Below are positions 16,366 to 53,344 of a DNA stretch of 64,000 nucleotides, one piece after another. The stretch's first letter is position 1, and the number at the start of each line of letters is the position of its first letter. The notes beneath the pieces were generated by a model, which had not been told where the DNA came from, made no database searches, and worked only from the letters and a program-made list of their open reading frames with translations. Source of the DNA: an uncultured Bacilli bacterium (lineage in GTDB: Bacteria; Bacillota_I; Bacilli_A; RF39; UBA660); NCBI GenBank assembly GCA_934183165.1, contig CAKPRZ010000001.1, positions 54,820 through 118,819 on the forward strand, in the 5' to 3' direction. A program made the position numbers and the translations under genes.

Positions 16366-18894
16366 TTATTTTCTTAAAACAGGTCCTTCGTATTCTTGCT
16401 CTTGTGCTTCAAATAATTCTTTTAACGCTTCTTTTGCAAGTTCTTCATAATAACTTGTATTTACATGTGGTGTTGCATATGATTCTGATTGAGAATTAAC
16501 ACCGGATCTAGTTTCATATCCATCATAATTTTCATCATATATATCATCGCCAAAATCAGAGTCTTCTGGTCCAGCTAAATTTGGATCATCAATAACATTA
16601 TCAGATGGCTTTTCTGATTCTATTGGTGTATCATCTTTAAAATCATTTTTATTGTCGTTATTATTATTGTTGTTATTATTATTGTTGTTATTATTATTGT
16701 TGCTATTATTGTTATTACTATTGTTATTTTTATTATTATTTTTGCTTTCTGCTTGTTTTTGAGCTTCTTTATATAAGTCTTCTGCTTCTTTTCTAGTAAT
16801 AGCACCTTGACTAACTGCTGAATTTAACTTTTGATTAATACCATTTAGCCATCCACTCTTGTATGCTTCAGCCATTTCTCCAGTATAACCTCTTTTTGAT
16901 AAATCTTTCGAAAGTCTTGCTTGAATTTGAGAATCTGAAGATGTAATTCTTTCATTATTAAATGCATATGCTGCTTGAGCTATATCAGATAAAGTACCTT
17001 GTGTTGGAACCTTACTAACTGCATTTGGATTAATTCTATTATATATATCAGCATGACTATATGCACCTTTTTCTTCTGCATAATTAGTTGCATCTGTCCA
17101 TCCAGCCTTAGCTGCAGTCGCTTTATCTCCTTTGTAGGTATTCTTATCTATTTGAACTTCATTAAAATCCTTTTCTTGTTTTTCTGCTTCTTTTCTTTCG
17201 CTTGGAGTTAAATCAGATTTATTAACTTTCTTAGAAGTTGTTGTTGTTGTATTACTGATAACCTTACCGTTTTTCTTTGCAAAATCAAGCTTTTGCTCAG
17301 CACTCATCTTGTCCCATTCATCTTTTGAAACGGAAGTGCCAGTATATGTTTCTATTTTTTCTACTCCTCTAATTCTATTGTTATATAAGATATCATCTTT
17401 AACTTCAATATAAGGTCCAAGTTCTCTATCAGCAGCATTTTTAACTTGATTATATACAGGAACATTATTTTCTTTATTTTCTAATTCTACATACTCTTCA
17501 TATGTCATTTGCCCTGATAGTATCTTTTCTGATGATTTTACATCTTTTTTATCTAAAGCTGTTGATGCTAGTGCAACCTTAGTAACCATTTGTTGATTAG
17601 CTAATGGAGTAATTATATCAGAAGATATATGTTCTCTCATGGCTGCTATTGTACAACTACCTTTCTCGGCAGTGTCTAACATATCTTTTAATTTTTCACC
17701 ACTTTGAATTTGTGATGCTTTATTATCACGATACTCTTCATCTAAAGTACCAGGTTCTGAAGTTACTTTTAAATAATGACTGTATTTTTCTTCAACATTG
17801 GCATCATAATAACCTCTAACCATATTTAACATTAAATGTTTAACATATTTTTCAGTAGATTTATCCATTTTTGAATCATTGGCACCATTAATACCATGAA
17901 TATAAGAGTATCCAAATGTTCTAATTAATCTATCAGCAGCATCAGTAGTTTGATTTTTATTAAATTCTACTAACTTGCCTTCCAAATCTTCAAACCAAGT
18001 TCTGTTTTCTTTGTCTGTTATCAATGTAGAAACAGTGCTAGGCGCTTTTCCATTCATAGCATACAAACTCATTTTAGATACAAAGTTGTAATAATTTTCT
18101 TCAATAGCCTGTGCATCTAATTCTTGAAGCCCAAAGATTGAGAATAATTCTTCACCACTATAGTTATTTAATACTAACATAGCTGACGATACTTCATCAT
18201 AAGTAAATTGTAATACTGCATTATCCTTTTTATCTGCTTCTAATGCAAATACAGATTCATCTTTTGCCAACTTATTCAATTGTTCTGTAACATCATATGC
18301 AGTTTGTGAGAACTTTCTTAATTCACTATCTTCAGGTAAAGCTTTCATAAGTTCATCAAATGATGCTGTATTAAAATCTATGTTTTTATTTGTTGACTTT
18401 CCATTACGTTTAGAACATTGTGAAAGCGTTACAGCTAATGCACCGGTTACACCAGCTACAGCTGCTGTAGTAACTGCAATTGTTTTAATAGTTTTTCTCT
18501 TATTTTTATCTTTACGTATAGAATTAATGTCTTCATCATCTTTTTCTTCTTCATCATCAAATGTTGGTTCAGTATCAGGAGAAATATCAGCTATTGAATC
18601 AATATCCGAAGGGAATTTTACAATTAAACTATCCCTAGTAAATTCTGTTTCTAAATTTTCTGCTTCTTTACTGTTTTCAGGAACAATCTCTAAATGTCCC
18701 ATTGCTATTAACTGATTTAAGAAATCAGGAGATGAAGTATCAAGACCAAATTCATTTGCAAAATCTATAATCATTTGATCATGGACTTTAAAGTCATATG
18801 GTACCTTTTTTAGACCATCATCAGTATGAACATATGCATATTTTGGATTATTAGATTCATTATTTACAATTGAAATTTTATTTATTTTATCCAT
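16366..18894 (-). CDS. Large membrane protein (842 aa): ~135-aa cytoplasmic N-domain, one TM, ~700-aa extracytoplasmic region with a poly-Asn tract and an acidic C-terminus.
   Basis: TM IKTIAVTTAAVAGVTGALAVTL. Low-complexity NNNKNNNSNNNNSNNNNNNNNNNNNNNNDNKND. No known catalytic motif. Confidence 0.65.
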   Translation of the reverse strand: MDKINKISIVNNESNNPKYAYVHTDDGLKKVPYDFKVHDQMIIDFANEFGLDTSSPDFLNQLIAMGHLEIVPENSKEAENLETEFTRDSLIVKFPSDIDSIADISPDTEPTFDDEEEKDDEDINSIRKDKNKRKTIKTIAVTTAAVAGVTGALAVTLSQCSKRNGKSTNKNIDFNTASFDELMKALPEDSELRKFSQTAYDVTEQLNKLAKDESVFALEADKKDNAVLQFTYDEVSSAMLVLNNYSGEELFSIFGLQELDAQAIEENYYNFVSKMSLYAMNGKAPSTVSTLITDKENRTWFEDLEGKLVEFNKNQTTDAADRLIRTFGYSYIHGINGANDSKMDKSTEKYVKHLMLNMVRGYYDANVEEKYSHYLKVTSEPGTLDEEYRDNKASQIQSGEKLKDMLDTAEKGSCTIAAMREHISSDIITPLANQQMVTKVALASTALDKKDVKSSEKILSGQMTYEEYVELENKENNVPVYNQVKNAADRELGPYIEVKDDILYNNRIRGVEKIETYTGTSVSKDEWDKMSAEQKLDFAKKNGKVISNTTTTTSKKVNKSDLTPSERKEAEKQEKDFNEVQIDKNTYKGDKATAAKAGWTDATNYAEEKGAYSHADIYNRINPNAVSKVPTQGTLSDIAQAAYAFNNERITSSDSQIQARLSKDLSKRGYTGEMAEAYKSGWLNGINQKLNSAVSQGAITRKEAEDLYKEAQKQAESKNNNKNNNSNNNNSNNNNNNNNNNNNNNNDNKNDFKDDTPIESEKPSDNVIDDPNLAGPEDSDFGDDIYDENYDGYETRSGVNSQSESYATPHVNTSYYEELAKEALKELFEAQEQEYEGPVLRK
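16652..16742. repeat. Coding trinucleotide (AAT/AAC)n-type microsatellite (~90 nt) encoding the poly-Asn tract.
   Basis: gttattattattgttgttattattattgttgttattattattgttgctattattgttattactattgttatt (plus strand). Confidence 0.8.
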
Positions 18895-40253: not shown

Positions 40254-41336
40254 TTATTTATTCTCAGTACAATTAATTGTTTCTGTTTTTACACATTTAC
40301 CATCTTTTTCTTTATATCCACTTGGACATGATTTTGATTTTTTTGTAGTAGATGTTGGAACACACCACATAAAAGCTCCACCCATACCATCTTCTTCAGT
40401 ATACATGTAATCAGATTTGTTTTGGCATTTCCAATTTCCATAATCGTTAGTAGCATGATATTTTTTACTATAATTCAAACATTTGCCATTTTTTAAGGTT
40501 AATCCACTTGAACATGTATTACGTGTAGTTAAATCAGTTGTAATATTTTTGGTACAAGTTTTATTATCACTACTTGGAGTACAATCTTTTGGACATACAT
40601 ACAAATCCTTCCAAATTGCAATAATTGTTACATTGCTATCTATTTTTGTATCTTTTGTTATAGTTGTACCATCACTTAATTTCCATCCACCAAAGATATA
40701 TCCTTTTTTCGTTGGATTTTGAGGCAACTTTATTTTATCACCCTTAGCAATAATAATATTATCAATAATATTTCCACCATCACTGTTAACAGTTATCGTA
40801 ATTTTTTCATCTTTCTGTGATATCCATCTTGGCTTTATAATCATTCCACTGTTGACTACATTATTACCATCAATTACCTCACCACCATCCAAAATCCAAC
40901 CAGCGAACACATATCCGCTCTTTGTAGGCGGAGAAATAAATTGTATTTTTTCTCCATCTATTTCATTTACATCAAGCTTTTTACCATTATCTAAAACAAA
41001 TGTTACATTAACTATAGTTTTTGTCTTATCTAACCATATTGCTTTTAGTTTAATATCGTTAGTTATAATCAAATCATCAGTCGCAATACTACCATCAGTT
41101 AGTTCAAAGCCTCCAAAAACATAACCATCTTTAACTGGATCTTTAGGTAATTTTAACTTACTATTCTCCGCCACCTCAAGATCACTTATACTACTACCGC
41201 CAACAGTATCAAAGCTAACTATATATTTTTTAGAATTATTCTTAAAATTTAAACCTAGCAACAATCCTATTATTAATAGTAAAAATAGAATTAATATCAA
41301 AAGCCATTTTTTCTTTTTTTTCTTACTTTCTTCCAT
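40254..41336 (-). CDS. Membrane-anchored surface protein with three Listeria-Bacteroides-type (Flg_new) repeats and a Cys-rich C-terminal domain.
   Basis: Repeats GYVFGGFELTDGS...IW, GYVFAGWILDGGE...RW, GYIFGGWKLSDGT...IW. N-terminal TM. C-terminal region with ~14 Cys. Confidence 0.7.
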   Translation of the reverse strand: MEESKKKKKKWLLILILFLLLIIGLLLGLNFKNNSKKYIVSFDTVGGSSISDLEVAENSKLKLPKDPVKDGYVFGGFELTDGSIATDDLIITNDIKLKAIWLDKTKTIVNVTFVLDNGKKLDVNEIDGEKIQFISPPTKSGYVFAGWILDGGEVIDGNNVVNSGMIIKPRWISQKDEKITITVNSDGGNIIDNIIIAKGDKIKLPQNPTKKGYIFGGWKLSDGTTITKDTKIDSNVTIIAIWKDLYVCPKDCTPSSDNKTCTKNITTDLTTRNTCSSGLTLKNGKCLNYSKKYHATNDYGNWKCQNKSDYMYTEEDGMGGAFMWCVPTSTTKKSKSCPSGYKEKDGKCVKTETINCTENK

Positions 41337-41347
41337 CGATATACCTC

Positions 41348-41713
41348 CTACCTATTATTATTATTATTGTTATTATTGTTGTTGTTATTTGATGATCCAC
41401 CACTAAATGAACTGCCACTATAACTACCACCAGATGATTCATAATGTGGAAGGATTCTAAATTCTTTGTTACTCATAATAACTCCATCTACACTACTATC
41501 AGTACACCTTGAATTTATAATAACAGCATTTGATGTATCCCTATTTACAACAAGAGAAAGATTTGAAGCTCCTATTACTTGTCCTGTTGGATTATCAACT
41601 AGAAACTTATATATTTGTTCTAAATCAGCCATAGATAATTCATAGTATTTAGTCAAATCAATACATCTTTTTTTTCTTATTAACTCTTCATATGTTTCGG
41701 GATCTTTATTCAT
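41348..41713 (-). CDS. Small protein (121 aa) with a conserved N-domain, a Gly/Ser/aromatic-rich tail and a poly-Asn C-terminus. Paralog of 47470..47868.
   Basis: TYEELIRKKRCIDLTKYYE... N-domain. Tail SSGGSYSGSSFSGGSSNNNNNNNNNNNNNR. Confidence 0.6.
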   Translation of the reverse strand: MNKDPETYEELIRKKRCIDLTKYYELSMADLEQIYKFLVDNPTGQVIGASNLSLVVNRDTSNAVIINSRCTDSSVDGVIMSNKEFRILPHYESSGGSYSGSSFSGGSSNNNNNNNNNNNNR

Positions 41714-41855
41714 AAATTCAACTCCTTATTAATCTACTACTATAAGTATCATATCACATTTTTAGTTAATAATATATACTTGTTATTCTATTCAATTAAT
41801 TATAAACTCTTGTTTTCGCTTATATATTTAATAAAAAAAGACTTTTAAAGTCTTA

Positions 41856-42623
41856 TTAATATTTAAAAGATTTACTAGAATCGTGTAAAAGCACAAGTTC
41901 TTTAGGTCTTTCATCAATAAAAAATGTTTCTTGATTTTTAAATTTATCTCCTTTAATAACAACCGGTTTGATATTAGAATTATTACTTTCTATTAAATTT
42001 CTTGCTTCTTCAGAAAATAAAGATACATCATATTTTGTATTCAACATCTGTTCAATAAACTCTTTTGATAAATATTGAGCATTGGTTGCAAAAGTAATTT
42101 GATCATCATTTGCTTGATAAGTACCATTATAAAATCTTTTATCAATAGTTCTTTTACTAAATGAAATATCACTTGGTGTTAGTGAATCAAGTCCATTTCT
42201 AATAGCGTTTTCCTTATCATTAAATACTCTAATATAGGAATAATTTAATATTTCATCTAATAGCATATTAAATTCTTCTGTATTATTTTTATCTACGTGA
42301 ACAGGGAAACTTTTTTTGCTATTACCTCTTATTACTGATATAACATAATTATTATCGGATTCTTTTTCAATAACAGCTGAATAACTATAGCGATTACTAA
42401 CTAAATGTTTTAACATTCCCATAATTGTAGATCTAGGTGTTGACTCATAAATATTTAATTGGATTTTACTACTACTTCCTACCATAAATGAAGGTTGAAC
42501 TTCATAATTATCACGATTATATGATAATAGTCTTTTTAACTTTTCTAAATCAACTGCTGATTTCAACAATTCATTTCTTAATCCAAAAACAATTTCTTTC
42601 GCAGTATATTTACTATTTTTCAT
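41856..42623 (-). CDS. Hypothetical cytoplasmic protein (start moved to MKNSKYT, preceded by AGGAGGG).
   Basis: Intact ORF, strong SD, no known motif. Confidence 0.5.
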   Translation of the reverse strand: MKNSKYTAKEIVFGLRNELLKSAVDLEKLKRLLSYNRDNYEVQPSFMVGSSSKIQLNIYESTPRSTIMGMLKHLVSNRYSYSAVIEKESDNNYVISVIRGNSKKSFPVHVDKNNTEEFNMLLDEILNYSYIRVFNDKENAIRNGLDSLTPSDISFSKRTIDKRFYNGTYQANDDQITFATNAQYLSKEFIEQMLNTKYDVSLFSEEARNLIESNNSNIKPVVIKGDKFKNQETFFIDERPKELVLLHDSSKSFKY

Positions 42624-42766
42624 ATACCATACCCTCCTAAACATTATTATATATACAAAACAAAATAAAAGCAATTATCTTTTAAGTTGCATAGTTAATA
42701 AATTATATGATATATTCAAATTGAAGTAGAACTTCAAAAGAATTTATAATTTATAAGGGAGATTTT

Positions 42767-43282
42767 ATGAAAAAGAAAATTTTGCTGTTGATTTTTATAG
42801 TAGGAACTAGTATTATTTTTACATTAACAGGCTGTGGTAAAAAACTTAAAACTATTACTTATACAGATAAGGAAAAAACAAAGGCATCAATAAATATTAA
42901 AGTACCAGAAAAATCCGATTTTACTTTGTCAGAAAACAAAAAAGATTTAAAAACATCAAGAGAAAACGCAATAATAAAAGGAGAAAAATTCGACATTGCC
43001 ATTCAATTTGATAAATTTTATACAAAAAGTAACATGGATACTTTAAAGAAAATATATAAAAATTATAATGATTTTAGAGAAGTAACCTATAATAAAACAA
43101 AAGGTTTTGTATATTATTATCCACTTTATATAAGATATGTAGTTGTATTACCTATTAATGAAAAAAGTTATGTATCGCTTCACATTTATTCAAAAGAATC
43201 AAGTACTAAAGAAGCTGGTATGAAAGAGTTATTTGATTCACAAGAAGTTCAAGATATTTTAAAAACAGTATCTTTTAACTAA
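42767..43282 (+). CDS. Lipoprotein (171 aa).
   Basis: Signal peptide with lipobox LTGC|GKK. Terminator immediately downstream. Confidence 0.65.
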   Translation: MKKKILLLIFIVGTSIIFTLTGCGKKLKTITYTDKEKTKASINIKVPEKSDFTLSENKKDLKTSRENAIIKGEKFDIAIQFDKFYTKSNMDTLKKIYKNYNDFREVTYNKTKGFVYYYPLYIRYVVVLPINEKSYVSLHIYSKESSTKEAGMKELFDSQEVQDILKTVSFN

Positions 43283-43289
43283 AGAAAGA

Positions 43290-43316
43290 GCCAAGAAATT
43301 AATTCTTGGCTTTTTT
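43290..43316. terminator. Bidirectional rho-independent terminator (gccaagaa-attaa-ttcttggc plus T6).
   Basis: Read from sequence. Lies between convergent genes. Confidence 0.5.
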
Positions 43317-43317
43317 A

Positions 43318-44028
43318 TTACATTATTTTATTTATTAAAGATGAAACATTAGCTGTATAGTTTTTAGCTACCTTTTTTATTTGAGGAAGAGCGTTATCCA
43401 TTGCATAGCCATTAAATTCTTTAATCATCTCATAATCACTGCTTCCATCCCCAACTACATAAATATCATTTTTATCCAAATTTAAATGTTTTAACAGTTT
43501 TTTTATTGCTACTGCTTTATTTGCTTTACTAGAAATAATTTCAATAGTTGTTTTACCAATACGATATAAATTTAAAAAATCACTATAATTACGTTTTACT
43601 TTACTAATTGCAGCAACAGTATATGATTCCAAACCATATTCAACATGAATCTTAGTTAATTCGGTTTGTTTAAAATTTAACCTACTCTTTAACTTACTAC
43701 AACAAAAACATTTAGTTGCTTTTTTAAGTTCCAAGGCCTCTTCTAAATTATTTAATATATCATTATTTATAAAAATATTATCAATAATATTATCATCGTT
43801 ATCTAATATTGTAGTTCCGTGATTTAAAATTGCATAATCATAAGATAGATTATATTTATCAACAATACGTTTAAAATCCAAATAGCTTCTACCAGTAGCA
43901 AATATAAAAATATTTCCCTGTTTTCTAAAGTCATCAACAGCTATTTTGTTAAGTTGAATATCTATATCATTTAGATAAAAAGTTTGATCATAATCACTTA
44001 TCAATATTTTTTTGTTCATTACTATCAC
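43318..44028 (-). CDS. Cof-type HAD-IIB phosphatase.
   Basis: MNKKILISDYDQTFY (DxD motif) ... GDGSSDYEMI (motif IV). Confidence 0.75.
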   Translation of the reverse strand: MIVMNKKILISDYDQTFYLNDIDIQLNKIAVDDFRKQGNIFIFATGRSYLDFKRIVDKYNLSYDYAILNHGTTILDNDDNIIDNIFINNDILNNLEEALELKKATKCFCCSKLKSRLNFKQTELTKIHVEYGLESYTVAAISKVKRNYSDFLNLYRIGKTTIEIISSKANKAVAIKKLLKHLNLDKNDIYVVGDGSSDYEMIKEFNGYAMDNALPQIKKVAKNYTANVSSLINKIM

Positions 44029-44090
44029 CCTTACTGCTTATACCACATCAAGTATATCAAAATCATACCAAATATACAAATATTTATGTT

Positions 44091-45212
44091 TTACTTATCT
44101 AGAGTCCAAGTTAGACCCTTATCACGACTAGTAAATGTCAATAACTTGTTTTCATAACCATCTCCTGAACTTTTAGCTTCATAAACAGAATACTGTACTT
44201 TCAAAACATCTTGATAGTAATATGGTATTTTTTCTAAAGTAATAAATTCAACATTTTTATTATCATAATTTATCTTTGATTCATCAAAAGTTAATCCTCC
44301 ATCATTAGTAACAAAAAAATAATTCGAAGTATTCTTATCTAAATATATTTTAGAAGGAACTGTAAAAGCTTGATTTTCATTTAAAAAGACAAATTTATTA
44401 TCACTTTTTACTTCTAATACATCTTTTGATACAGTATAAAAGTTTTTACCATTATCATCACTTTTCACAACATTGACAAGTATTTTCGATGCTAAAGTAC
44501 TATCTACTTTTCCAAATCTTAATATTTTATTATTAAATTTTTTTTCACATAAAACTTCTAGTTGTTCTGGCAGTACAAAATTTTCATTTTGATTGAATCT
44601 CGTAGCATTACTACTATCTTCTATAACATTTTTATCTATTACCTTTTTATTGATATCTTTAATGTACTGGATTTTTTGTTTTCTTTCTACCTTACCACTG
44701 TCGTCATAATAAGTATATTCTACTTCCTCCACATTTTCTTCATTAACAAATGGATCATATCCACCTTTACCAAAGTATCCAAAAACTTTCACCTTATTAC
44801 CCATTAATATTGGTCCATAATAATCATAATAATATACATTTACATGAAGAAATGATTCTACTCTTGCCACATACTTTTTATTATTTAATACTACAATATG
44901 TTCTGGTTGATATAAAAATGCAGATAGTAAAAATACAAAGTAAATAATTGGTAATAATATCAATATAATTAATAAAAATAAAATCATGAACACTATTCTA
45001 GCTTTCTTACTATCTTCGGTAAACTTTAATATCAATTGAATAACTCCAGAAATAAAACTAACTGCGCTAATTATAATGATACCAATGATAATCACATTTC
45101 TAAATCTAATATTAAATAAATATAAAATAAAATTAATTATAATACTAAGCACTATAAAAAAAGTACTATAAGTAAGAATATATCTTTTACTATTTGTTAA
45201 TAATTTTTTCAT
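44091..45212 (-). CDS. Membrane protein (3 TM) with an extracytoplasmic domain carrying BNR/Asp-box-like motifs.
   Basis: N-terminal hydrophobic helices. VTNDGGLTF and SRDKGLTWT resemble SxDxGxTW Asp-boxes. Confidence 0.5.
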   Translation of the reverse strand: MKKLLTNSKRYILTYSTFFIVLSIIINFILYLFNIRFRNVIIIGIIIISAVSFISGVIQLILKFTEDSKKARIVFMILFLLIILILLPIIYFVFLLSAFLYQPEHIVVLNNKKYVARVESFLHVNVYYYDYYGPILMGNKVKVFGYFGKGGYDPFVNEENVEEVEYTYYDDSGKVERKQKIQYIKDINKKVIDKNVIEDSSNATRFNQNENFVLPEQLEVLCEKKFNNKILRFGKVDSTLASKILVNVVKSDDNGKNFYTVSKDVLEVKSDNKFVFLNENQAFTVPSKIYLDKNTSNYFFVTNDGGLTFDESKINYDNKNVEFITLEKIPYYYQDVLKVQYSVYEAKSSGDGYENKLLTFTSRDKGLTWTLDK

Positions 45213-45220
45213 AAATTCAC

Positions 45221-46225
45221 CTACTTTAAGATAATACCTTTTTCGTATTTAGATAAATAGTTTTCTTTTAAAATTAACTTATTGTTTTTTATTACAAATA
45301 CTGAAACATTAGGTATATTAATATCTTTATCTTTATTGGATATTTCAGTTCTATAATAAATTAACTCATCATTTTCTATCTTAAATGTTCCTTTTGATAC
45401 TTCAAGTACTTTTGAATTATAATAAATATTCATACTAGCTTCAAATAGATAATCTTTTTGATTCTTCTTTATTTCTGGTAAGAAATGAACTACTAATTGC
45501 TTGTTTTCTGAATATAAAGTACGAAAAGTATTTAGTGTTCCTAATTTTTCTTTATATTCTTTTAAAAGCATTGTATTACAATAGTTACCCATTCTTATAT
45601 TATAAGAAATAGTATTGTATAGGAATCTATTTTTTACCTTATAATCAATTATTGTTACATCTGCATCTTTATCAAAAAAATATGTAGTATTATTACATGA
45701 TATATGCTCTAAAGAATTAAGATAATTTCTTACTTCACTAATTAGTACACTATTTCCTCTAAAATTCTTATATGAATAGCTATTTTCATTATTTTTCATA
45801 TTAAATGAAAACTTTGGCACCCCTAAACTAATCACTTTATTAGTGTTGTTATTAGTATAATGTATTGGTTTAATTATATATCCAAAAGGTAATAGTTTAA
45901 AAAGAATTATTATTATAATCAATGTAATAGGAAGTAAAATACAAATGTTTTTCTTTAACAATTGTTTTCTTATTTTTTTTCTTTCTTGTTTTAGTACTTC
46001 ACTAACATCTATTTTATTTTTGTTTTCTATCTGTAAAATTTCATATATATCTGTATCGAGTTCATTAGCTAACTTTTTTAACATAGTAACATCTGGAAGA
46101 CTTAATCCTCTTTCCCACTTACTGATAGCTTTATCTGTTATGAACAATCTATTGCCAAGTTCTTGTTGTGTTAGTTTTTTTTCTTTTCTTTTCGACGCTA
46201 TAAATTTTCCAATATTATTATTCAT
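45221..46225 (-). CDS. Membrane-anchored XRE-family HTH regulator (HTH, TM, extracytoplasmic domain).
   Basis: N-terminal KKLTQQELGNRLFITDKAISKWERGLSLPD (XRE HTH). TM LLPITLIIIIILFKLL. ~220-aa C-terminal domain. Confidence 0.7.
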   Translation of the reverse strand: MNNNIGKFIASKRKEKKLTQQELGNRLFITDKAISKWERGLSLPDVTMLKKLANELDTDIYEILQIENKNKIDVSEVLKQERKKIRKQLLKKNICILLPITLIIIIILFKLLPFGYIIKPIHYTNNNTNKVISLGVPKFSFNMKNNENSYSYKNFRGNSVLISEVRNYLNSLEHISCNNTTYFFDKDADVTIIDYKVKNRFLYNTISYNIRMGNYCNTMLLKEYKEKLGTLNTFRTLYSENKQLVVHFLPEIKKNQKDYLFEASMNIYYNSKVLEVSKGTFKIENDELIYYRTEISNKDKDINIPNVSVFVIKNNKLILKENYLSKYEKGIILK

Positions 46226-46382
46226 AATTTATCTCACCTCACACCAATCATATCACAAATTAGTTAAAATAATTCTCTACTATTAGTTTAGTTTGAATTT
46301 ATTACATTTTTTAGGCGTTACATCACAATTTTATATTTTATTAAACTATTGTGCATCAATAATTATTTTAAAAACATGATAT

Positions 46383-46409
46383 ATAAAAAAGTATGTTTTA
46401 ATCATACTC
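46383..46409 (-). terminator. Rho-independent terminator ending the rSAM operon (agtatg-ttttaat-catact plus T-run on minus).
   Basis: Read from sequence. Lies 20 nt downstream of the stop at 46429. Confidence 0.5.
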
Positions 46410-46428
46410 TTACATTAAAATTATATAT

Positions 46429-47454
46429 TTAAGAATCACTATTATTAATCATGATCCATTCTTGTAAGTATTTAATTGGTTTTCTACAATAACTACAAGA
46501 ATCCTTTGTGACATCTATTAAACCTCCACAATTATGACATTTGATCATATTTATACCATCATGAACCTCAATTGTTCCTTTTTCATGTCTTTCTAAAACA
46601 TATTTATCGTCACAATACTTAGATACAATTTTATTGTTTTTATAATAAACGATTCTTACTTCAGCTGTAACTTCAACAACTAATTTATTATTAACAGTTG
46701 ATTCCTTGAAGTCAATGTAATCAAGTACATCATAATCAATAATATCGTCCTGTTTATAATACTTTTTTCTTACTTCATAATTTAAATTATTAAAGAATAC
46801 TTTTTTATCTATTTCAGTCCTATTCCAAAATTCTATTTGTTTTTGATTTTGAGCATCTTTATATGCTTTTATAGGTCCTAAAATAATATAGGCATCCAAG
46901 ATGTAAAAGAAATAATATAGAATCAAAGATAAAATTCCACCATAAATAAATATTTTAGCTATATCATATTCATTAAATGTTCTAGATGTAGTACTTATAA
47001 AAATATATGTTAAAAATAAACTAACAATTAAATCAATAAATGCTGTAATAATTCTATAACTAGTATTTCTTAAAACCCTATCGTAATGATATTTACTACC
47101 TAAATCTTTATCAGTATAATCTATATTATATTTTGATCTACAATATGGACATCCATCTATAAAATTTTTTACTTTCCCGGGCATGCCACAATTTGGACAA
47201 GAAAAATCTTTATTTTCTTCTTCTTTAGATATAAAAGTATATTCTATTCTAGTATCAAATAATTTTTCTGTTTTTAAAAGTTTATTACCTATATAATAAT
47301 CCTTTTCACATCTTACACCATTTTTTATATCATCATTTACTATTCCATTAGTATTTCTTTCTAATATATTATTACCAACAATATACTTCGTTTTAATATT
47401 TATATTATATTTTTTTAATTTTTTATCATGAAAAGTATCCGAAACTAACGACAC
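46429..47454 (-). CDS. Membrane protein with two zinc-ribbon motifs and two TM helices (341 aa).
   Basis: CPNCG...CPYC (N-terminal region) and CHNCGG...CSYC (C-terminus). Two hydrophobic helices at ~aa 140-200. Confidence 0.6.
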   Translation of the reverse strand: MSLVSDTFHDKKLKKYNINIKTKYIVGNNILERNTNGIVNDDIKNGVRCEKDYYIGNKLLKTEKLFDTRIEYTFISKEEENKDFSCPNCGMPGKVKNFIDGCPYCRSKYNIDYTDKDLGSKYHYDRVLRNTSYRIITAFIDLIVSLFLTYIFISTTSRTFNEYDIAKIFIYGGILSLILYYFFYILDAYIILGPIKAYKDAQNQKQIEFWNRTEIDKKVFFNNLNYEVRKKYYKQDDIIDYDVLDYIDFKESTVNNKLVVEVTAEVRIVYYKNNKIVSKYCDDKYVLERHEKGTIEVHDGINMIKCHNCGGLIDVTKDSCSYCRKPIKYLQEWIMINNSDS

Positions 47455-47469
47455 AAAACCACTTCCTTT

Positions 47470-47868
47470 TTATCTATTATTATTGTTATTAGATGATCCG
47501 CCACTAAAAGAACTACCGCCAAAAAAACTACCACCAAACGATCCACCATAAAATGATGATCCACCTGAATAGGATGATCCTGAATAAGCCTTTGGTACAT
47601 AATGAGGAATAATTCTAAATTCAGTATTACTCACAATAACACCATCAATTTTTGAATCTTTTTTTCTAGCCATAATAACCGACTTAACATCATTATCAAT
47701 GATAAGTGATAGTTTAAGAAAATAACCTACAATTACTCCATTAACATTATTAGCTAGAAAATTATAAACTTCTTTCAAATCGTTATCATTAATTTCATAA
47801 TATTTAGTTAAATCAAAGCATCTTTTATTTCTAATAATTTCTGCATATGTTTGAGCATCATCTTTCAT
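47470..47868 (-). CDS. Small protein (132 aa) with a conserved N-domain, a Gly/Ser/Tyr/Phe repeat tail and poly-Asn. Immediately downstream of, and overlapping, the rSAM gene.
   Basis: TYAEIIRNKRCFDLTKYYE... N-domain. Tail AYSGSSYSGGSSFYGGSFGGSFFGGSSFSGGSSNNNNNR. The start overlaps the rSAM stop by 11 nt. Confidence 0.6.
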   Translation of the reverse strand: MKDDAQTYAEIIRNKRCFDLTKYYEINDNDLKEVYNFLANNVNGVIVGYFLKLSLIIDNDVKSVIMARKKDSKIDGVIVSNTEFRIIPHYVPKAYSGSSYSGGSSFYGGSFGGSFFGGSSFSGGSSNNNNNR

Positions 47869-49609
47869 TTTTTCCCTCCAAATTTAAATAATAAAATTCA
47901 ATATTTTGAAATGGTAAATTTATAGCTTGAATATGATAATAAGCATTATTTTTTTGTTTTAGGTAATGATAATCCCTTAAAGCTGATGTCGTAAAGAAAA
48001 TATTATTAGAATTATCGATAGAATATTGACTATGGTACTCTTTAATTAAATTAGTTATATCATATTCATAGTAATATTCATTATTTGTATTAACACTATC
48101 TAAAACTCCTTTGTAAATTTGATGAGTTACAACATGTCGCTGTTTTGTTCTTTCTTCATCACCATAAGTAACTAAATTCCCACTAAGAATCATAATGTAT
48201 AAAGAATTATTTTCAGGATAATCACATTCTTCTTTAATTAAATTCTTTTTCATACAAATAACAATCTTACTTTGAGGCGTTATGTATATAATTTCTCTTG
48301 ATTTCTTTATTATTTGAGAAGAAAGCGGATATTTGATATCATCAACCTTTAATATAAAAGAATTATCATCATATATATATTTAAGTCTAGGATCACTATC
48401 AATAATGTCTTCTAATAAGGGATATGGACTATTAGTATCTTTTTTTATATATTTAGTAGCGTCTCCTATTCTCATTTTGGTTGCATATTGATATGTGAAT
48501 TCATTAAATTTATCTTCTAAATAGTTTCTATCTTTATACATTTGTTTTTGTAAAAGACAAGTATAACTTTTGTTTTGATTATATGTATTTTTTACAAATG
48601 GGCATCCTGTTTTGCATAAATATAAATAACTACAGTTAGCGCAATCCTCATTAAATGGTAGTTTATTATGATTGATAAAAATCTTCTTATAAGCTTCTTT
48701 TAATATATCATCAACCGTATTTGTATAAATATTTCCATAGTAATAATCAGGATTTTTTTGTCCTCTTACACAAGAATAAATATCTCCATTTCTTTCTAGT
48801 AAAAAGAATTTTTCACCACAATTGTCACAATTAGAGCAATAATCCGGTCCAAATTCATCAAACCATGCACCATTAACTCCACTATCTAAATCAGTCCCAT
48901 CAAATTCTTGATGCATTTTTATGTAGAAATCGACTTGTTCTTCTTCTGCTAAATGATGTAATAATCCATTTGAATTATAATCAAAACCTATCATAAAGTT
49001 AAAATCATTCATATCTAAACATGTATTTTTATTTAAAAATTTTATATCTTCAATAATCTCATCTATGTGTGAATAATGTTCTTTGAATATGGTAGATGAA
49101 ACTTTCTTCTTGTTTGGAATATTTTCTAATAGCTTTATATTATCTAAGATTCTTTCCAATGTCTTAGCTCCACCTTTAGTAACTCTGTATTCATTATGAA
49201 GCGATAAAGGTAAATCAAGACTTCCCGATATTGAAACATTAAATTCTTTAATAGTATCAATATGTTTTTCTATATCAAATAAATTTGTCTTTATATGTGG
49301 ATTACCGATTTTAAAGCCACCTTCATTTATAACTTGTTGATTTTCTTTATAATAATCACTTATAAATTTTATAACGTCATGAAAATCATCTTTACTTAAT
49401 GTTGTAACTTCTCCTCCATGAAGTGAAATATTAAATGGTATAACATTATTCTCTTTAAATTTTGAAATAGCATATTCTAATGTATCTAATGGTTTATATT
49501 TAGTTTTTAATTCTTTTGTATTATCCTCTAAATAGCAATATTTACATCCCATATTACATGCCATTGTTGGAACATACAATAAATGAATATATTTATAATT
49601 TTTTTCCAT
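47858..49609 (-). CDS. Radical SAM / SPASM-domain enzyme with a ~230-aa C-terminal extension (583 aa).
   Basis: CNMGCKYC (Cx3Cx2C) at aa 18-25. SPASM-type clusters CSNCDNCG ... C...CANCSYLYLCKTGCP...C. Confidence 0.85.
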   Translation of the reverse strand: MEKNYKYIHLLYVPTMACNMGCKYCYLEDNTKELKTKYKPLDTLEYAISKFKENNVIPFNISLHGGEVTTLSKDDFHDVIKFISDYYKENQQVINEGGFKIGNPHIKTNLFDIEKHIDTIKEFNVSISGSLDLPLSLHNEYRVTKGGAKTLERILDNIKLLENIPNKKKVSSTIFKEHYSHIDEIIEDIKFLNKNTCLDMNDFNFMIGFDYNSNGLLHHLAEEEQVDFYIKMHQEFDGTDLDSGVNGAWFDEFGPDYCSNCDNCGEKFFLLERNGDIYSCVRGQKNPDYYYGNIYTNTVDDILKEAYKKIFINHNKLPFNEDCANCSYLYLCKTGCPFVKNTYNQNKSYTCLLQKQMYKDRNYLEDKFNEFTYQYATKMRIGDATKYIKKDTNSPYPLLEDIIDSDPRLKYIYDDNSFILKVDDIKYPLSSQIIKKSREIIYITPQSKIVICMKKNLIKEECDYPENNSLYIMILSGNLVTYGDEERTKQRHVVTHQIYKGVLDSVNTNNEYYYEYDITNLIKEYHSQYSIDNSNNIFFTTSALRDYHYLKQKNNAYYHIQAINLPFQNIEFYYLNLEGKNER

Positions 49610-50726: not shown

Positions 50727-51656
50727 TCATTTTCTAAAAAGAATTGTTATCCTAGCTAAAATATATGTAAAGGTATCATTTAAATAATTTTCTACATTCG
50801 TATTAAATTCAAGTTGCTCCTTTAAGCTAATAAAAGCATTTTTTATTTTATTGTCATAAAATCCTTTATCAAAATCATTATGTAATGTATCAATATCAAT
50901 ATCAATATTGGAAACCTTCAAGCTAAATATATCTTGATTTGAATATTTTAATAGTAAAGAAACTAAAAATACTTCTTCAAAGATATTAATTGATAAATCA
51001 GTACTATTGTTATATAAGTCTTTTAATAAAGCATTAATATTTAGAGCATTAAATCTTTTACAAAATATATTTTCAAAATTAATATAATTTAAATAGTTAC
51101 TGATAAGTTCTATGCCAATGTAATTACCTTTTTTCTTTAAAGGCATATAATCAAGAGTAATTTTAATGTCTTCTGGATTATTCATCTTATATACTTTAAA
51201 AAAAGCTTCCATTCCATCTTTTAATGTAGAATTATAAAAATAATTATTTACTTTTATAAGATTATGTTTAAAAACAGTTTCATAAAAAAACTTAGTTTTA
51301 CTAAATAATTCACCTATATATTTCAAACTCAATTGATATAAATTAGTGATATTTTCTTTTAAAAGAATTTCTATTATTTCATAAGAAGAATATTTTTTCA
51401 AATAAACTCCCATTGTCCATATCATGGATTTATAAATAACTTCTACTTCTTTCACAGGAATAGTATTTATTTTGTTTTTAAATTGCTCTTTTAATTGGTC
51501 TTTTAAAGCATTAAACATTTTATAATTAATTACCACGAATTCTTCTTTTGATATAATTTGATATTGAAAAAAGCAATTTATTATTTGTTCTAAATAATAA
51601 TTATTCTTTTCAATTTTAGGAATTTTAGGAACAATACTATTCATAAAATTTATCAC
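50727..51656 (-). CDS. Hypothetical cytoplasmic protein (309 aa).
   Basis: Intact ORF. Overlaps the upstream 142-aa gene by 20 nt. Confidence 0.5.
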   Translation of the reverse strand: MINFMNSIVPKIPKIEKNNYYLEQIINCFFQYQIISKEEFVVINYKMFNALKDQLKEQFKNKINTIPVKEVEVIYKSMIWTMGVYLKKYSSYEIIEILLKENITNLYQLSLKYIGELFSKTKFFYETVFKHNLIKVNNYFYNSTLKDGMEAFFKVYKMNNPEDIKITLDYMPLKKKGNYIGIELISNYLNYINFENIFCKRFNALNINALLKDLYNNSTDLSINIFEEVFLVSLLLKYSNQDIFSLKVSNIDIDIDTLHNDFDKGFYDNKIKNAFISLKEQLEFNTNVENYLNDTFTYILARITILFRK

Positions 51657-52065
51657 TTTCTAATTTATTTTTTAATTCATTCAAGCAAAAATCCTGTAGT
51701 ATTTCAATAGATCCTTCACAAACTCCATCAAAACTATTTTTAATATAATCAATAATCTCATCATCGTTTAAAAAGTTATCAAATTCTGATTGATATAAAT
51801 AAAAGGTTTCTATCAAGGCATTGACTATCTCATAATAATTATCACAATCAATAAAAGAAGATTCATAAAAGTTTTGAATCAAATAATTTACATTATTATA
51901 TATTTCAAATCTATTTAATTGCTTTAATAAAAGATTTTTATTTTCAATTAGTTGTATAGCTTGTTTCTTTGTTAATACCAAATTTCTTTCAGAGGTAATA
52001 TCATTAACACTAAGAACTTTTTTTATCTCTAAATCTAGATTCATATTATCAATTGATTTTATCAT
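51637..52065 (-). CDS. Hypothetical acidic cytoplasmic protein (142 aa).
   Basis: SD GAAGGGAGAA upstream. Lies downstream of the sigma gene terminator. Confidence 0.5.
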   Translation of the reverse strand: MIKSIDNMNLDLEIKKVLSVNDITSERNLVLTKKQAIQLIENKNLLLKQLNRFEIYNNVNYLIQNFYESSFIDCDNYYEIVNALIETFYLYQSEFDNFLNDDEIIDYIKNSFDGVCEGSIEILQDFCLNELKNKLESDKFYE

Positions 52066-52157: not shown

Positions 52158-52188
52158 AAAACCAGTAATTTTAACATTTACTGGTTTA
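52158..52188 (-). terminator. Rho-independent terminator of the sigma-factor gene (accagtaa-N9-ttactggt plus T-rich run on minus). It overlaps the stop codon.
   Basis: Read from sequence. Confidence 0.45.
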
Positions 52189-53344
52189 TTTTTATATCAG
52201 TACTTTTTAAATACTTCTTCAATTTTTTTAAAGCTTTTTGTTCAGAATTTCTTACCCATTCGTGAGAACAACCCATTTTTTTAGAAATACTACGATATGA
52301 TAGTTGTTCATATCCATTGAATCCAAAACGATAATTTATTATTTCTCTTTCATTATAGGGAAGTTTGTCTACAATAAAATCTATTTGATCTAAAAAAATA
52401 TTCTTAGTTGCTTCCTCTTCAACATCATCATCGGAAGGTACAATTTCATGATATGATGTATCATCATCCAGTTTAATAGATGAATCAAGCCTGATTGGGG
52501 TAATTGAAATTAAATAAGACTCATAAAATTTATATTCCTTACTAGACAAATTAAACCTAGTCATAATTTCATTTGGTGTTAATTTTCTACAAAGCTCTTG
52601 TTCTAAGTCTTCAACTTGTTTTCTTATACTATTATATTTTAAATATGCCACCATATTTTTCTTTTTTGTTTTTTCATACACAGTGACTCTTCTTAATTCT
52701 CTTACAATACCTGTAGTCGCATATGTAGAAAAACGACAATTAAAATCTTTACTATAACCATCTACAGCTTTTAATAAAACGATATTTCCTTCACCTATCA
52801 AATCTAAAATATCTACTGTACTAATACTAGCATACTTCTTCGCTAAAGATACAACTAATCTTAAATTAGAATTAACCATATTATTAAAGGCATTTTTATA
52901 TACTAAATAATTTTTTACTTGACTTAAAATCTCTTTGTCGTCTAGTTGATTAGCTAAATCACTATCAACATCAAAGTCATTTTTCAAAGTTTCTATATCA
53001 GGCGCTTTGCTGTTTTTCTTACAATAATTCTGGTATTTAACAAGTTGTTCTAAATTTTTTTTATCTAAAGACATATTACTATTTTTATAAAAATCTATTA
53101 ATAATGAAATTACATCTGAATATACTGAGGAATTTACTAAATATAAAAATAATTTTTGTAAATCGATTCCTCTTATTTGAGTAGATCCAACTTTTATATT
53201 TTTTATAAAGGAAATGTTATCAACAAGCCCTAATTCATCAGTCAATTGCTTCTCTTCATCTTCATTCAATAAAGGATAATCTTCAATTTCTTTTAAATAA
53301 AGATGTAATGCATCAATATTTTCATAATCATTATTTTTTGACAT
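52178..53344 (-). CDS. Divergent sigma-70 family sigma factor (388 aa) with a non-canonical region 2.4.
   Basis: Region 1.2-like LHLYLKEIEDYPLL. Region 2 NLRLVVSLAKKY...LIGEGNIVLLKAVDGY...FSTYATTGIVRELRRV. Region 4 LSYRSISKKMGCSHEWVRNSEQKALKKL. Confidence 0.75.
   Translation of the reverse strand: MSKNNDYENIDALHLYLKEIEDYPLLNEDEEKQLTDELGLVDNISFIKNIKVGSTQIRGIDLQKLFLYLVNSSVYSDVISLLIDFYKNSNMSLDKKNLEQLVKYQNYCKKNSKAPDIETLKNDFDVDSDLANQLDDKEILSQVKNYLVYKNAFNNMVNSNLRLVVSLAKKYASISTVDILDLIGEGNIVLLKAVDGYSKDFNCRFSTYATTGIVRELRRVTVYEKTKKKNMVAYLKYNSIRKQVEDLEQELCRKLTPNEIMTRFNLSSKEYKFYESYLISITPIRLDSSIKLDDDTSYHEIVPSDDDVEEEATKNIFLDQIDFIVDKLPYNEREIINYRFGFNGYEQLSYRSISKKMGCSHEWVRNSEQKALKKLKKYLKSTDIKINQ

Follow-up and report, generated by a model that had tools for sequence, protein, structure and literature searches.

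A conserved four-gene cassette of uncultured gut Bacilli pairs a radical-SAM/SPASM enzyme with its putative substrate, a small protein with a poly-asparagine tail

The 64,000-nucleotide (nt) stretch of contig CAKPRZ010000001.1 analyzed here, from an uncultured Bacilli bacterium (hereafter the window), encodes two small proteins that end in a run of asparagines. One of them, copy B, belongs to a four-gene cassette together with a radical S-adenosylmethionine (rSAM) enzyme of the SPASM type and two membrane proteins, C1 and C3, and the same cassette recurs in 75 species loci; the other, copy A, is an orphan. With slightly better than even confidence, and judging from sequence comparison, we propose that the small protein is a putative dedicated substrate of the co-encoded enzyme and is modified in its tail. 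rSAM/SPASM enzymes have been a repeated source of new peptide chemistry and cofactors, and in the present case an enzyme of high conservation is tied to a substrate-like protein marked by a conserved run of about eleven asparagines. The cassette occurs widely in gut metagenomes of humans and animals, in almost wholly uncultured lineages to whose cell biology it opens one of few routes.

Gene order, the radical-SAM/SPASM enzyme and its membrane partners

The window has about 25% GC, and nearly all of its genes lie on the minus strand, including the cassette, in which C1 (49619-50611), the rSAM/SPASM gene (47858-49609), copy B (47470-47868) and C3 (46429-47454) follow one another. Copy B overlaps the end of the rSAM gene by 11 nt, and the C3 gene starts 15 nt after copy B. 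We scanned one genome for each of 185,579 species with the first-helix motif of the small protein as the query, a design by which divergent orphans would be missed, and obtained 75 species loci. Their hosts are gut metagenome-assembled genomes labeled uncultured Bacilli, Tenericutes or Mollicutes, along with 'Clostridium sp. CAG:417/465/524/921/1219', 'Mycoplasma sp. CAG:956' and a few Lachnospiraceae (Waltera, Acetatifactor, Roseburia). When open reading frames (ORFs) were called in these loci and the 1433 products clustered, both by simple home-made procedures, only four clusters proved common to nearly all loci; their genes are co-directional and keep the fixed order C1, rSAM/SPASM, small protein, C3. 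The rSAM gene lies directly upstream of the small gene in all 75 species loci as well as in the window. By tblastn, it is found in 76/76 sources, and C1 and C3 in 73/76 each, with the misses at contig ends. The genes are closely packed, with a median overlap of 4 nt (4–8 nt) between the rSAM and small genes and median gaps of 11 nt from the small gene to C3 and 8 nt from C1 to the rSAM gene. The flanking genes differ between lineages and in most loci are ordinary chromosomal genes, e.g., pyrB/pyrI and mutS2. The initial annotation had noted an rSAM gene beside only one of the two small ORFs, which is true of the window, but the linkage is the rule for the family (75/75 species loci) and copy A is its exception. 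It had also suspected a dedicated but uncharacterized module, and the conserved cassette, with a small protein that has no Pfam or NCBIfam relative, agrees with that suspicion.

The pair of rSAM and small genes persists in remote relatives (loci L078, L080 and L081/82), where the enzyme is 53-65% identical and C3 can be missing. In L080-L082, the N-terminal domain (N-domain) of the small protein is only 20-30% identical while the enzyme is 53-58% identical; L080 has no co-directional gene after the small gene.

The enzyme (583 amino acids [aa]; ~580 aa in the family) carries the rSAM motif CX3CX2C as CNMGCKYC at residues 18-25, followed by GGE at residues 65-67, and matches PF04055 with 43.7 bits against a cut-off of 29.5. 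The seven-Cys SPASM motif (CX9-15GX4C, gap, CX2CX5CX3C, gap, C) is present at residues 261-280, 323-336 and C351, and two SPASM models score above their cut-offs (PF13186, 24.9 vs 21.5; TIGR04085, 42.3 vs 27). The motif Cys are invariant in 28 orthologues. Almost all of the best NCBIfam models are SPASM maturases that act on peptides or proteins (anSME, DynA, PapB, DarE, HxsB, cyclophane formers, CbpB and QhpD), and every one of them stays below its cut-off. The enzyme reaches 93.7 bits against the 349.45 of anSME (TIGR03942), 86.5 against the 450 of DynA and 60.9 against the 650 of DarE among the dynobactin/darobactin maturases, and 40.7 against the 453 of QhpD (TIGR03906), and so falls outside each of these families. 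GrrM/OscB, XyeB, FxsB, YhhB and AmcB give 51.4, 26.7, 20.4, 52.5 and 56.8 bits against cut-offs of 310-450, matching the N-terminal half only. No separate recognition element (RRE) of the kind used for ribosomally synthesized and post-translationally modified peptides (RiPPs) is found in the enzyme. Its C-terminal domain (~residues 361-583) is found only in this enzyme family, with 183 matches to the search; among the matches listed, the proteins with this domain are fragments of 126-391 aa, many with SPASM, and apparently pieces of the same enzymes. The domain is predicted to be a beta-sandwich (predicted local distance difference test score, pLDDT, 80), with only generic structural neighbors. 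Across the family, the enzyme is conserved at 58–77% identity, and relative to other species the window enzyme is 75-77% identical versus 37-62% for the N-domain of the small protein.

Both remaining cassette proteins are predicted membrane proteins, with topologies inferred from hydrophobicity alone. C1 (49619..50611, minus strand; 330 aa in the window, 300-775 aa in the family) has hydrophobic segments at residues 59-77, 79-97 and 136-154 and a C-terminal BspA-type leucine-rich repeat (LRR) domain (Pfam LRR_5, 2.6e-28), which we infer to be extracellular. The window C1 is a short form. In most species (L001, L002, L009, L011, L012 and others), C1 has 530-680 aa, and in this long form the conserved FDPIY..SED.L.EEFIKREM is preceded by a CxxC...CxxC zinc ribbon and one more hydrophobic segment at the N-terminus, so that in those species both membrane partners carry zinc ribbons. 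C3 (46429..47454, minus strand; 341 aa, ~337 aa in the family) has two transmembrane (TM) segments, at residues ~135-153 and 165-193, with a zinc ribbon before and after them. Its Pfam matches are to zinc ribbons only (DZR in 34/34 orthologues), and eight Cys are invariant. Both ribbons, like both ends of the protein, are presumably cytoplasmic; lying outside the TM segments, they point to C3 as a membrane-anchored rather than a surface protein. The genes that follow the two small ORFs had initially been described as membrane or surface protein genes; the membrane part holds for both, and the surface part does not hold for C3. At 90% identity, the C3 family falls into 924 clusters, only one of which has a name, the label 'rubrerythrin'.

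The small-protein family and its asparagine tract

Copy A (41348..41713, minus strand; 121 aa; N-domain 41441-41713) and copy B (47470..47868, minus strand; 132 aa; N-domain 47599-47868, disordered tail 47473-47598) are paralogues, as had been suggested, with 49% identity over the first 92 aa (BLASTP, E=7e-32) and similarity confined to the N-domain. Both have the S/G/Y/F-rich tail with an Asn end that the initial annotation described, and each Asn run is followed by a terminal Arg. Copy B has the 5 Asn originally counted (47476-47490, Arg at 47473-47475), whereas copy A has 12 (41354-41389, Arg at 41351-41353) and not 13. A hydrophobic segment is found in neither copy, in line with the earlier call of no TM segment, and the suggested likeness to TPM/YgcG proteins was not recovered, there being no TPM match in Pfam.

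A word-indexed family search returned 77 clusters of 107-177 aa, most of 110-125 aa, none of them with a Pfam domain or an informative name, and a profile hidden Markov model of the N-domain retrieved only 161 proteins from 1.84 billion representatives. Searches of Pfam, NCBIfam, PADLOC and PHROGs with both small proteins and the family alignments gave nothing significant, so that the Pfam search of the N-domain, proposed earlier as a check, matched no known family. Searching PDB sequences with profiles of the N-domain, the rSAM enzyme and C3 yielded no match, or zinc-ribbon noise only. By these searches, the small proteins are an undescribed family, matching no curated family.

Members share a common plan, with a ~90-aa N-domain, a short S/G-rich linker, the Asn tract and usually one last residue. 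AlphaFold2, run on a 74-sequence alignment, predicts a helix at residues 8-23, a second at 28-40 and five strands, with pLDDT >90 for ~residues 10-90, followed by a disordered tail (pLDDT <50 for residues 99-126 of copy B). The first helix is nearly invariant (ETYEELIRKKRC.DL). Among 216 distinct family sequences of 100-145 aa, 181 have the Asn tract at their end, ranging from 4 to 17 Asn with a median of 11; it is preceded by GSSS/GGSS in 152 and followed by Arg in 120. The tail consensus is therefore GSSS-Asn(~11)-Arg, and the tract with its flanks is the most conserved part of the family: relatives with a hardly alignable N-domain still end in ...GGSS-N(8-12)-G/H/S, and the tract survives where the N-domain is only 20-30% identical.

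On this comparative evidence, the Asn tract is selected and is not slippage noise, contrary to the initial annotation, which had read the difference in tract length as repeat slippage. Lachnospiraceae loci of 41-50% GC have a tract of 14-16 Asn. In 65/65 loci, AAC accounts for a larger share of the Asn codons in the tract than in the surrounding genes (Wilcoxon p = 2e-12), at 0.36 vs a background of 0.14 in low-GC genomes and 0.55 vs 0.40 in mid-GC genomes. Tract codons are a mixture of AAT and AAC, also in copy A, and the longest same-codon run has a median of 3, a pattern that counteracts slippage. The comparison among strains, which had been put forward as a check, finds tract length near-constant: all ten full-length copy B strain variants have 132 aa and 5 Asn, with tails that differ by point changes only, and the copy A tail DNA is identical in three further strains, with 11 rather than 12 Asn in a divergent lineage. 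A homopolymeric tract under purifying selection and encoded to resist slippage is the opposite of the default assumption for AT-rich genomes.

It is quite improbable, in our estimate, that the tail has no chemical role and represents a ribosome-pausing sensor of Asn-tRNA supply gating the downstream gene, a C-terminal degron, or low-complexity drift or slippage. Such explanations draw on the position of the tract right before the stop codon and 6-15 nt from the start of the next gene, in cassette and orphans alike, on the one-Asn difference of copy A between strain lineages, on assemblies frameshifted within the tract (P0011, P0078, P0084) and on an unrelated 15-Asn run in the window. Drift or slippage is at odds with the retention of the tract at 43-50% GC, with the AAC enrichment and short same-codon runs described above, and with the narrow length range, the fixed GSSS flank and terminal Arg, and the stability among strains. 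A purely translational device is hard to reconcile with the attachment of the tract to a conserved folded domain and with L080, where no co-directional gene follows.

At the Asn frequency of the window (0.083), 0.07 runs of at least 5 Asn and ~2e-9 runs of at least 12 Asn are expected by chance. The unrelated run lies in an 842-aa protein with one TM segment (16366..18894, minus strand), within an internal Asn-rich stretch (…NNNKNNNSNNNNSN15DNKN…), and is the sole other run of at least 8 Asn among the window proteins. Apart from one frameshifted family member, it is also the sole run of at least 8 Asn in 392,000 non-family residues of the related loci. Since this genome can thus produce such runs, it is the family-wide comparison, and not the window by itself, that argues for selection.

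Several metagenome proteins (P0011, P0012, P0078, P0084, P0087) show read-through or a frameshift inside the Asn tract, with products such as '…NNNNTIITTITT…', and locus L065 (10001-10381) has an in-frame stop within the N-domain. These entries are assembly errors or real pseudogenes, and the tract is a hotspot of miscalled proteins.

Copy B has an atypical tail, with GGS(F/Y)-type repeats and an Asn run at the bottom of the family range. Tandem Repeats Finder locates the imperfect repeats that encode these units, and by which the tail is lengthened, at 47501..47580 on the minus strand, as two arrays with 82% matches each (47501-47538, period 15, 2.5 copies; 47540-47580, period 18, 2.3 copies). 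Similar GGSF expansions occur sporadically in the distant relatives P0204, P0126 and P0139.

Possible roles of the small protein

In the mechanism that we propose, the folded 90-aa N-domain would dock on the enzyme via its first helix, plausibly on the private C-terminal beta-sandwich, and the disordered tail would be fed into the active site, where at least one residue of the GSSS-Asn(n)-Arg end would lose a hydrogen to the enzyme. Cross-linking, epimerization and oxidation (of Ser or Asn) are conceivable results, and the nearest enzyme families offer precedents for each. As the cassette has no conserved protease or exporter beside it, the product would probably remain a protein, staying whole and acting in the cytoplasm or at the membrane with C1 and C3. 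Copy A, as an extra orphan with a canonical tail, would presumably be a second substrate of the same enzyme in trans. This model is supported by the rSAM gene upstream in 75/75 loci, the persistence of the pair in remote relatives, the proximity of the enzyme to peptide and protein maturases, the architecture of folded head and disordered tail, and the conservation of the tail end, the enzyme and the first helix.

Several points weigh against a substrate role. The docking step is conjectural. An enzyme-first gene order with translational coupling would be expected equally of a substrate and of a stoichiometric partner or subunit. The orphans, namely copy A and the remote relative P0221 (L076/L077), which has no rSAM gene within 650 nt of upstream contig, imply that the protein can persist without an adjacent enzyme, and a phage rSAM homologue (33.5% identity) that lacks a poly-Asn neighbor implies that the tie to this substrate does not extend to the wider enzyme family. 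In addition, typical RiPP cores differ from this 'core', which is of low complexity and nearly invariant.

A subunit role is one alternative, which we regard as unlikely. The small protein may be a chaperone or adaptor of the rSAM enzyme, functionally similar to PqqD or MftB, with C1, C3 or an unlinked protein as the true substrate and the tail as a tether, solubility or regulatory element. The gene overlap suggests 1:1 co-translation, the enzyme lacks an RRE of its own, C3 has eight invariant Cys, and in the phage the homologous enzyme does without a poly-Asn protein. The N-domain shows no similarity in sequence or fold to an RRE or PqqD-like chaperone, which is a winged helix with strands before helices.

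A classical RiPP, with the N-domain as a long leader comparable to NHLP or Nif11 and the S/G/Asn tail as a core that is cleaved and exported, e.g., as an epimerized or cross-linked poly-Asn peptide, is distinctly unlikely. The small protein, as a candidate precursor with putative modification, adjoins in 75/75 loci a SPASM enzyme whose nearest models are RiPP maturases; a long N-terminal region also precedes a C-terminal tail, and the first helix is conserved like a recognition element. However, only C1, rSAM, small protein and C3 are common to the 75 loci, where the flanks are variable and no leader peptidase or other protease, ABC exporter or immunity gene is conserved. Moreover, the N-domain, predicted with pLDDT >90 to fold compactly as alpha2-beta5, does not look like a typical leader and has no NHLP or Nif11 match in Pfam or NCBIfam. 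RiPP cores are usually variable, but the 'core' hardly changes within this family.

By analogy, the cassette would function as a pair of rSAM/SPASM maturase and dedicated small protein substrate, for which the closest parallels are GrrA/GrrM, QhpC/QhpD and anSME, although it is a member of none of these. GrrA and GrrM (TIGR04260/TIGR04261) are an rSAM-associated Gly-rich repeat protein and its cyclophane-forming rSAM/SPASM maturase. GrrA likewise has ~125 aa, roughly half of them an N-domain and half a Gly-rich low-complexity C-terminus with scattered aromatics, beside a SPASM enzyme, and the likeness is strongest in the GGS(F/Y) repeats of copy B. In contrast to GrrA, the defining element here is the Asn tract with GSSS rather than Gly repeats, and a tail aromatic is not invariant. 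Neither copy A nor copy B matches TIGR04260 with E up to 0.1, nor do 74 family members with E up to 0.01, and the enzyme scores 51.4 bits against the 310 cut-off of TIGR04261. The hosts are gut Firmicutes rather than cyanobacteria, and two extra membrane partners are present.

QhpD, an rSAM/SPASM enzyme, introduces cross-links into the small gamma subunit of quinohemoprotein amine dehydrogenase, and in the qhp operon its gene directly precedes qhpC, the gene of its small protein substrate. The same placement of the rSAM gene right before the small-protein gene is seen here, the enzyme is likewise of the SPASM type without an RRE, and QhpC is modified as a protein and not released as a peptide, as may be the case for the small protein. 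Unlike QhpC, the tail has no Cys/Asp/Glu thioether motif, and the cassette has no dehydrogenase subunits, protease or exporter. anSME (TIGR03942) is the best-scoring model (residues 15-360 vs model positions 8-352 of 363), with an rSAM core and then a full SPASM domain, and acts on Ser or Cys of a leaderless protein substrate. However, the enzyme is ~25% identical to plasmid-borne anSMEs and has an extra 220-aa beta-sandwich domain, and the tail lacks the (C/S)-x-(P/A)-x-R sulfatase motif. Proteusins are NHLP-leader precursors with rSAM epimerases (polytheonamide PoyA/PoyD), in which iterative action on many Asn has a precedent. They resemble the small protein in a ~90-aa N-terminal region followed by a Gly/Asn/Ser-rich C-terminal region beside an rSAM enzyme, but differ in their leader, which has no counterpart here by the Pfam and NCBIfam searches, and in the methyltransferase, protease and exporter genes, none of which lie near the cassette. 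To our knowledge, PoyD-type epimerases are not SPASM enzymes. We know of no rSAM system with a motif of about eleven Asn, and in the full-text literature on rSAM/SPASM systems with poly-Asn or Asn-rich proteins, or with LRR plus zinc ribbon, we found no description of the cassette.

A more far-reaching form of the substrate proposal, possible though doubtful, is that the cassette makes a new protein-borne modification on the C-terminal Ser-Ser-poly-Asn, by iterative epimerization or carbon-carbon/carbon-heteroatom cross-linking, giving a rigid or membrane-active structure or a protein-derived cofactor used by both membrane proteins. If true, both the rSAM chemistry and the functional class of poly-Asn tail would be new, and limited to uncultured gut Bacilli together with a few Lachnospiraceae.

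That the cassette is a module related to phages or directed against them, acting, e.g., by receptor masking or abortive infection with the small protein as effector or decoy, is highly improbable. The idea stems from the enzyme, which matches phrog_1802 over its full length (E = 1.4e-39) and has a full-length homologue in the tail module of Campylobacter phage CAM-P21 (MW462221.2, 28053-29810; L097 4986-6743; 33.5% identity, 97% coverage) and another in C. coli plasmid NZ_CP082878.1 (166062-167786), and from the LRR domain of C1, which matches two PHROGs. The Lachnospiraceae cassettes lie near putative AAA-ATPase-like genes, and one IMG/VR contig carries the cassette. However, that contig (L098) is 1 of 2.9 million viral contigs, and no phage or plasmid record holds the small protein or the cassette, so carriage on phages or plasmids was dismissed. 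PADLOC returned only generic similarity, the rSAM core being matched weakly by a viperin-type model (26 bits) and copy B marginally, at 14.4 bits, by the candidate PDC-M62B, and the flanks are mostly ordinary chromosomal genes (pyrB/pyrI, mutS2).

In CAM-P21, the rSAM gene sits between tail-fiber and tail-sheath genes and overlaps by 8 nt the gene of a 128-aa FKTDGASIP-motif protein, which we take to be a putative DUF1353 member, followed by a gene for a 337-aa protein. The enzymes are homologous including the C-terminal domain, and the layout of an overlapping small gene and a 337-aa gene is alike, but the neighbors are not homologous: neither resembles the small protein or C3, the 337-aa protein has no zinc ribbons, and there is no poly-Asn protein. 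On rSAM genes of Campylobacter prophages, the literature yielded nothing beyond an unrelated CP220 paper. In Lachnospiraceae (L005-L007, L010; Waltera and others; 41-50% GC), the cassette is flanked by copies of the AAA-ATPase-like gene, encoding 406-476 aa, and the protein downstream presumably resembles DUF2397. These flanks and the one viral-classed contig hint at horizontal transfer into Lachnospiraceae.

The orphan copy and the surrounding genes

As the initial annotation stated, a membrane-protein gene follows close behind each copy, the zinc-ribbon protein gene 15 nt after copy B and, 11 nt after copy A, the gene of a Flg_new surface protein (40254..41336, minus strand; Pfam Flg_new 6.5e-30). 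The latter has an N-terminal TM anchor (residues 11-29), three Listeria-Bacteroides repeats and a Cys-rich end. Near copy A, tblastn and blastn detect no rSAM, C1 or C3 fragment, so that the small ORF alone is duplicated, and we dropped the notion that its neighborhood is the remnant of a second cassette. A 272-aa protein encoded upstream of copy A was also dropped as a cassette relative, since no similarity was detected and none of the loci has a homologue of it. The 75 species loci showed no orphan, which makes the window arrangement unusual.

The N-domain of copy A is closer than that of copy B to the cassette copies of other species in 63/67 comparisons, and the copy B N-domain lies on a longer branch. 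In a neighbor-joining tree, copy A groups with L004 and copy B with L001/L022/L032. The two may perhaps not be recent local duplicates, on a tree of 90 residues only. The pair of copy A and the Flg_new gene is retained in a divergent strain lineage, and no orthologous arrangement was found in other species, so the pairing is specific to the window species. A TM-anchored Flg_new protein follows C3 in L004 and L034, and one could speculate that the pair in the window is the leftover of a second, L004-like cassette. In divergent strains of the window species (L086, 14165 onward; L094, 1935-6821; L095, 1078-5964), a 1628-aa gene with no Pfam match is inserted between a 255-aa gene and copy A, and the copy A and Flg_new pair is intact there.

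Promoter-like sites in the AT-rich window DNA (117 found vs 101 expected) were uninformative, as were terminator scans, and an Rfam scan found one tRNA only, far from the locus. Directly upstream of the cassette lie an overlapping DUF6323 and DUF6179 pair and a sigma-70-family gene (50727..52065 and 52178..53344, minus strand). In L017 and L031, a related sigma-like gene stands two or three positions upstream of C1; its cluster occurs in five sources including the window, and the linkage is not general. Directly downstream of C3 is a gene for an HTH_3 (XRE-type) protein with one TM segment (45221..46225, minus strand), and next comes that of a protein of 373 aa, which has three TM segments and matches BNR-like models weakly (44091..45212, minus strand). 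Both genes are retained in all strains of the window species and do not belong to the cassette in other species.

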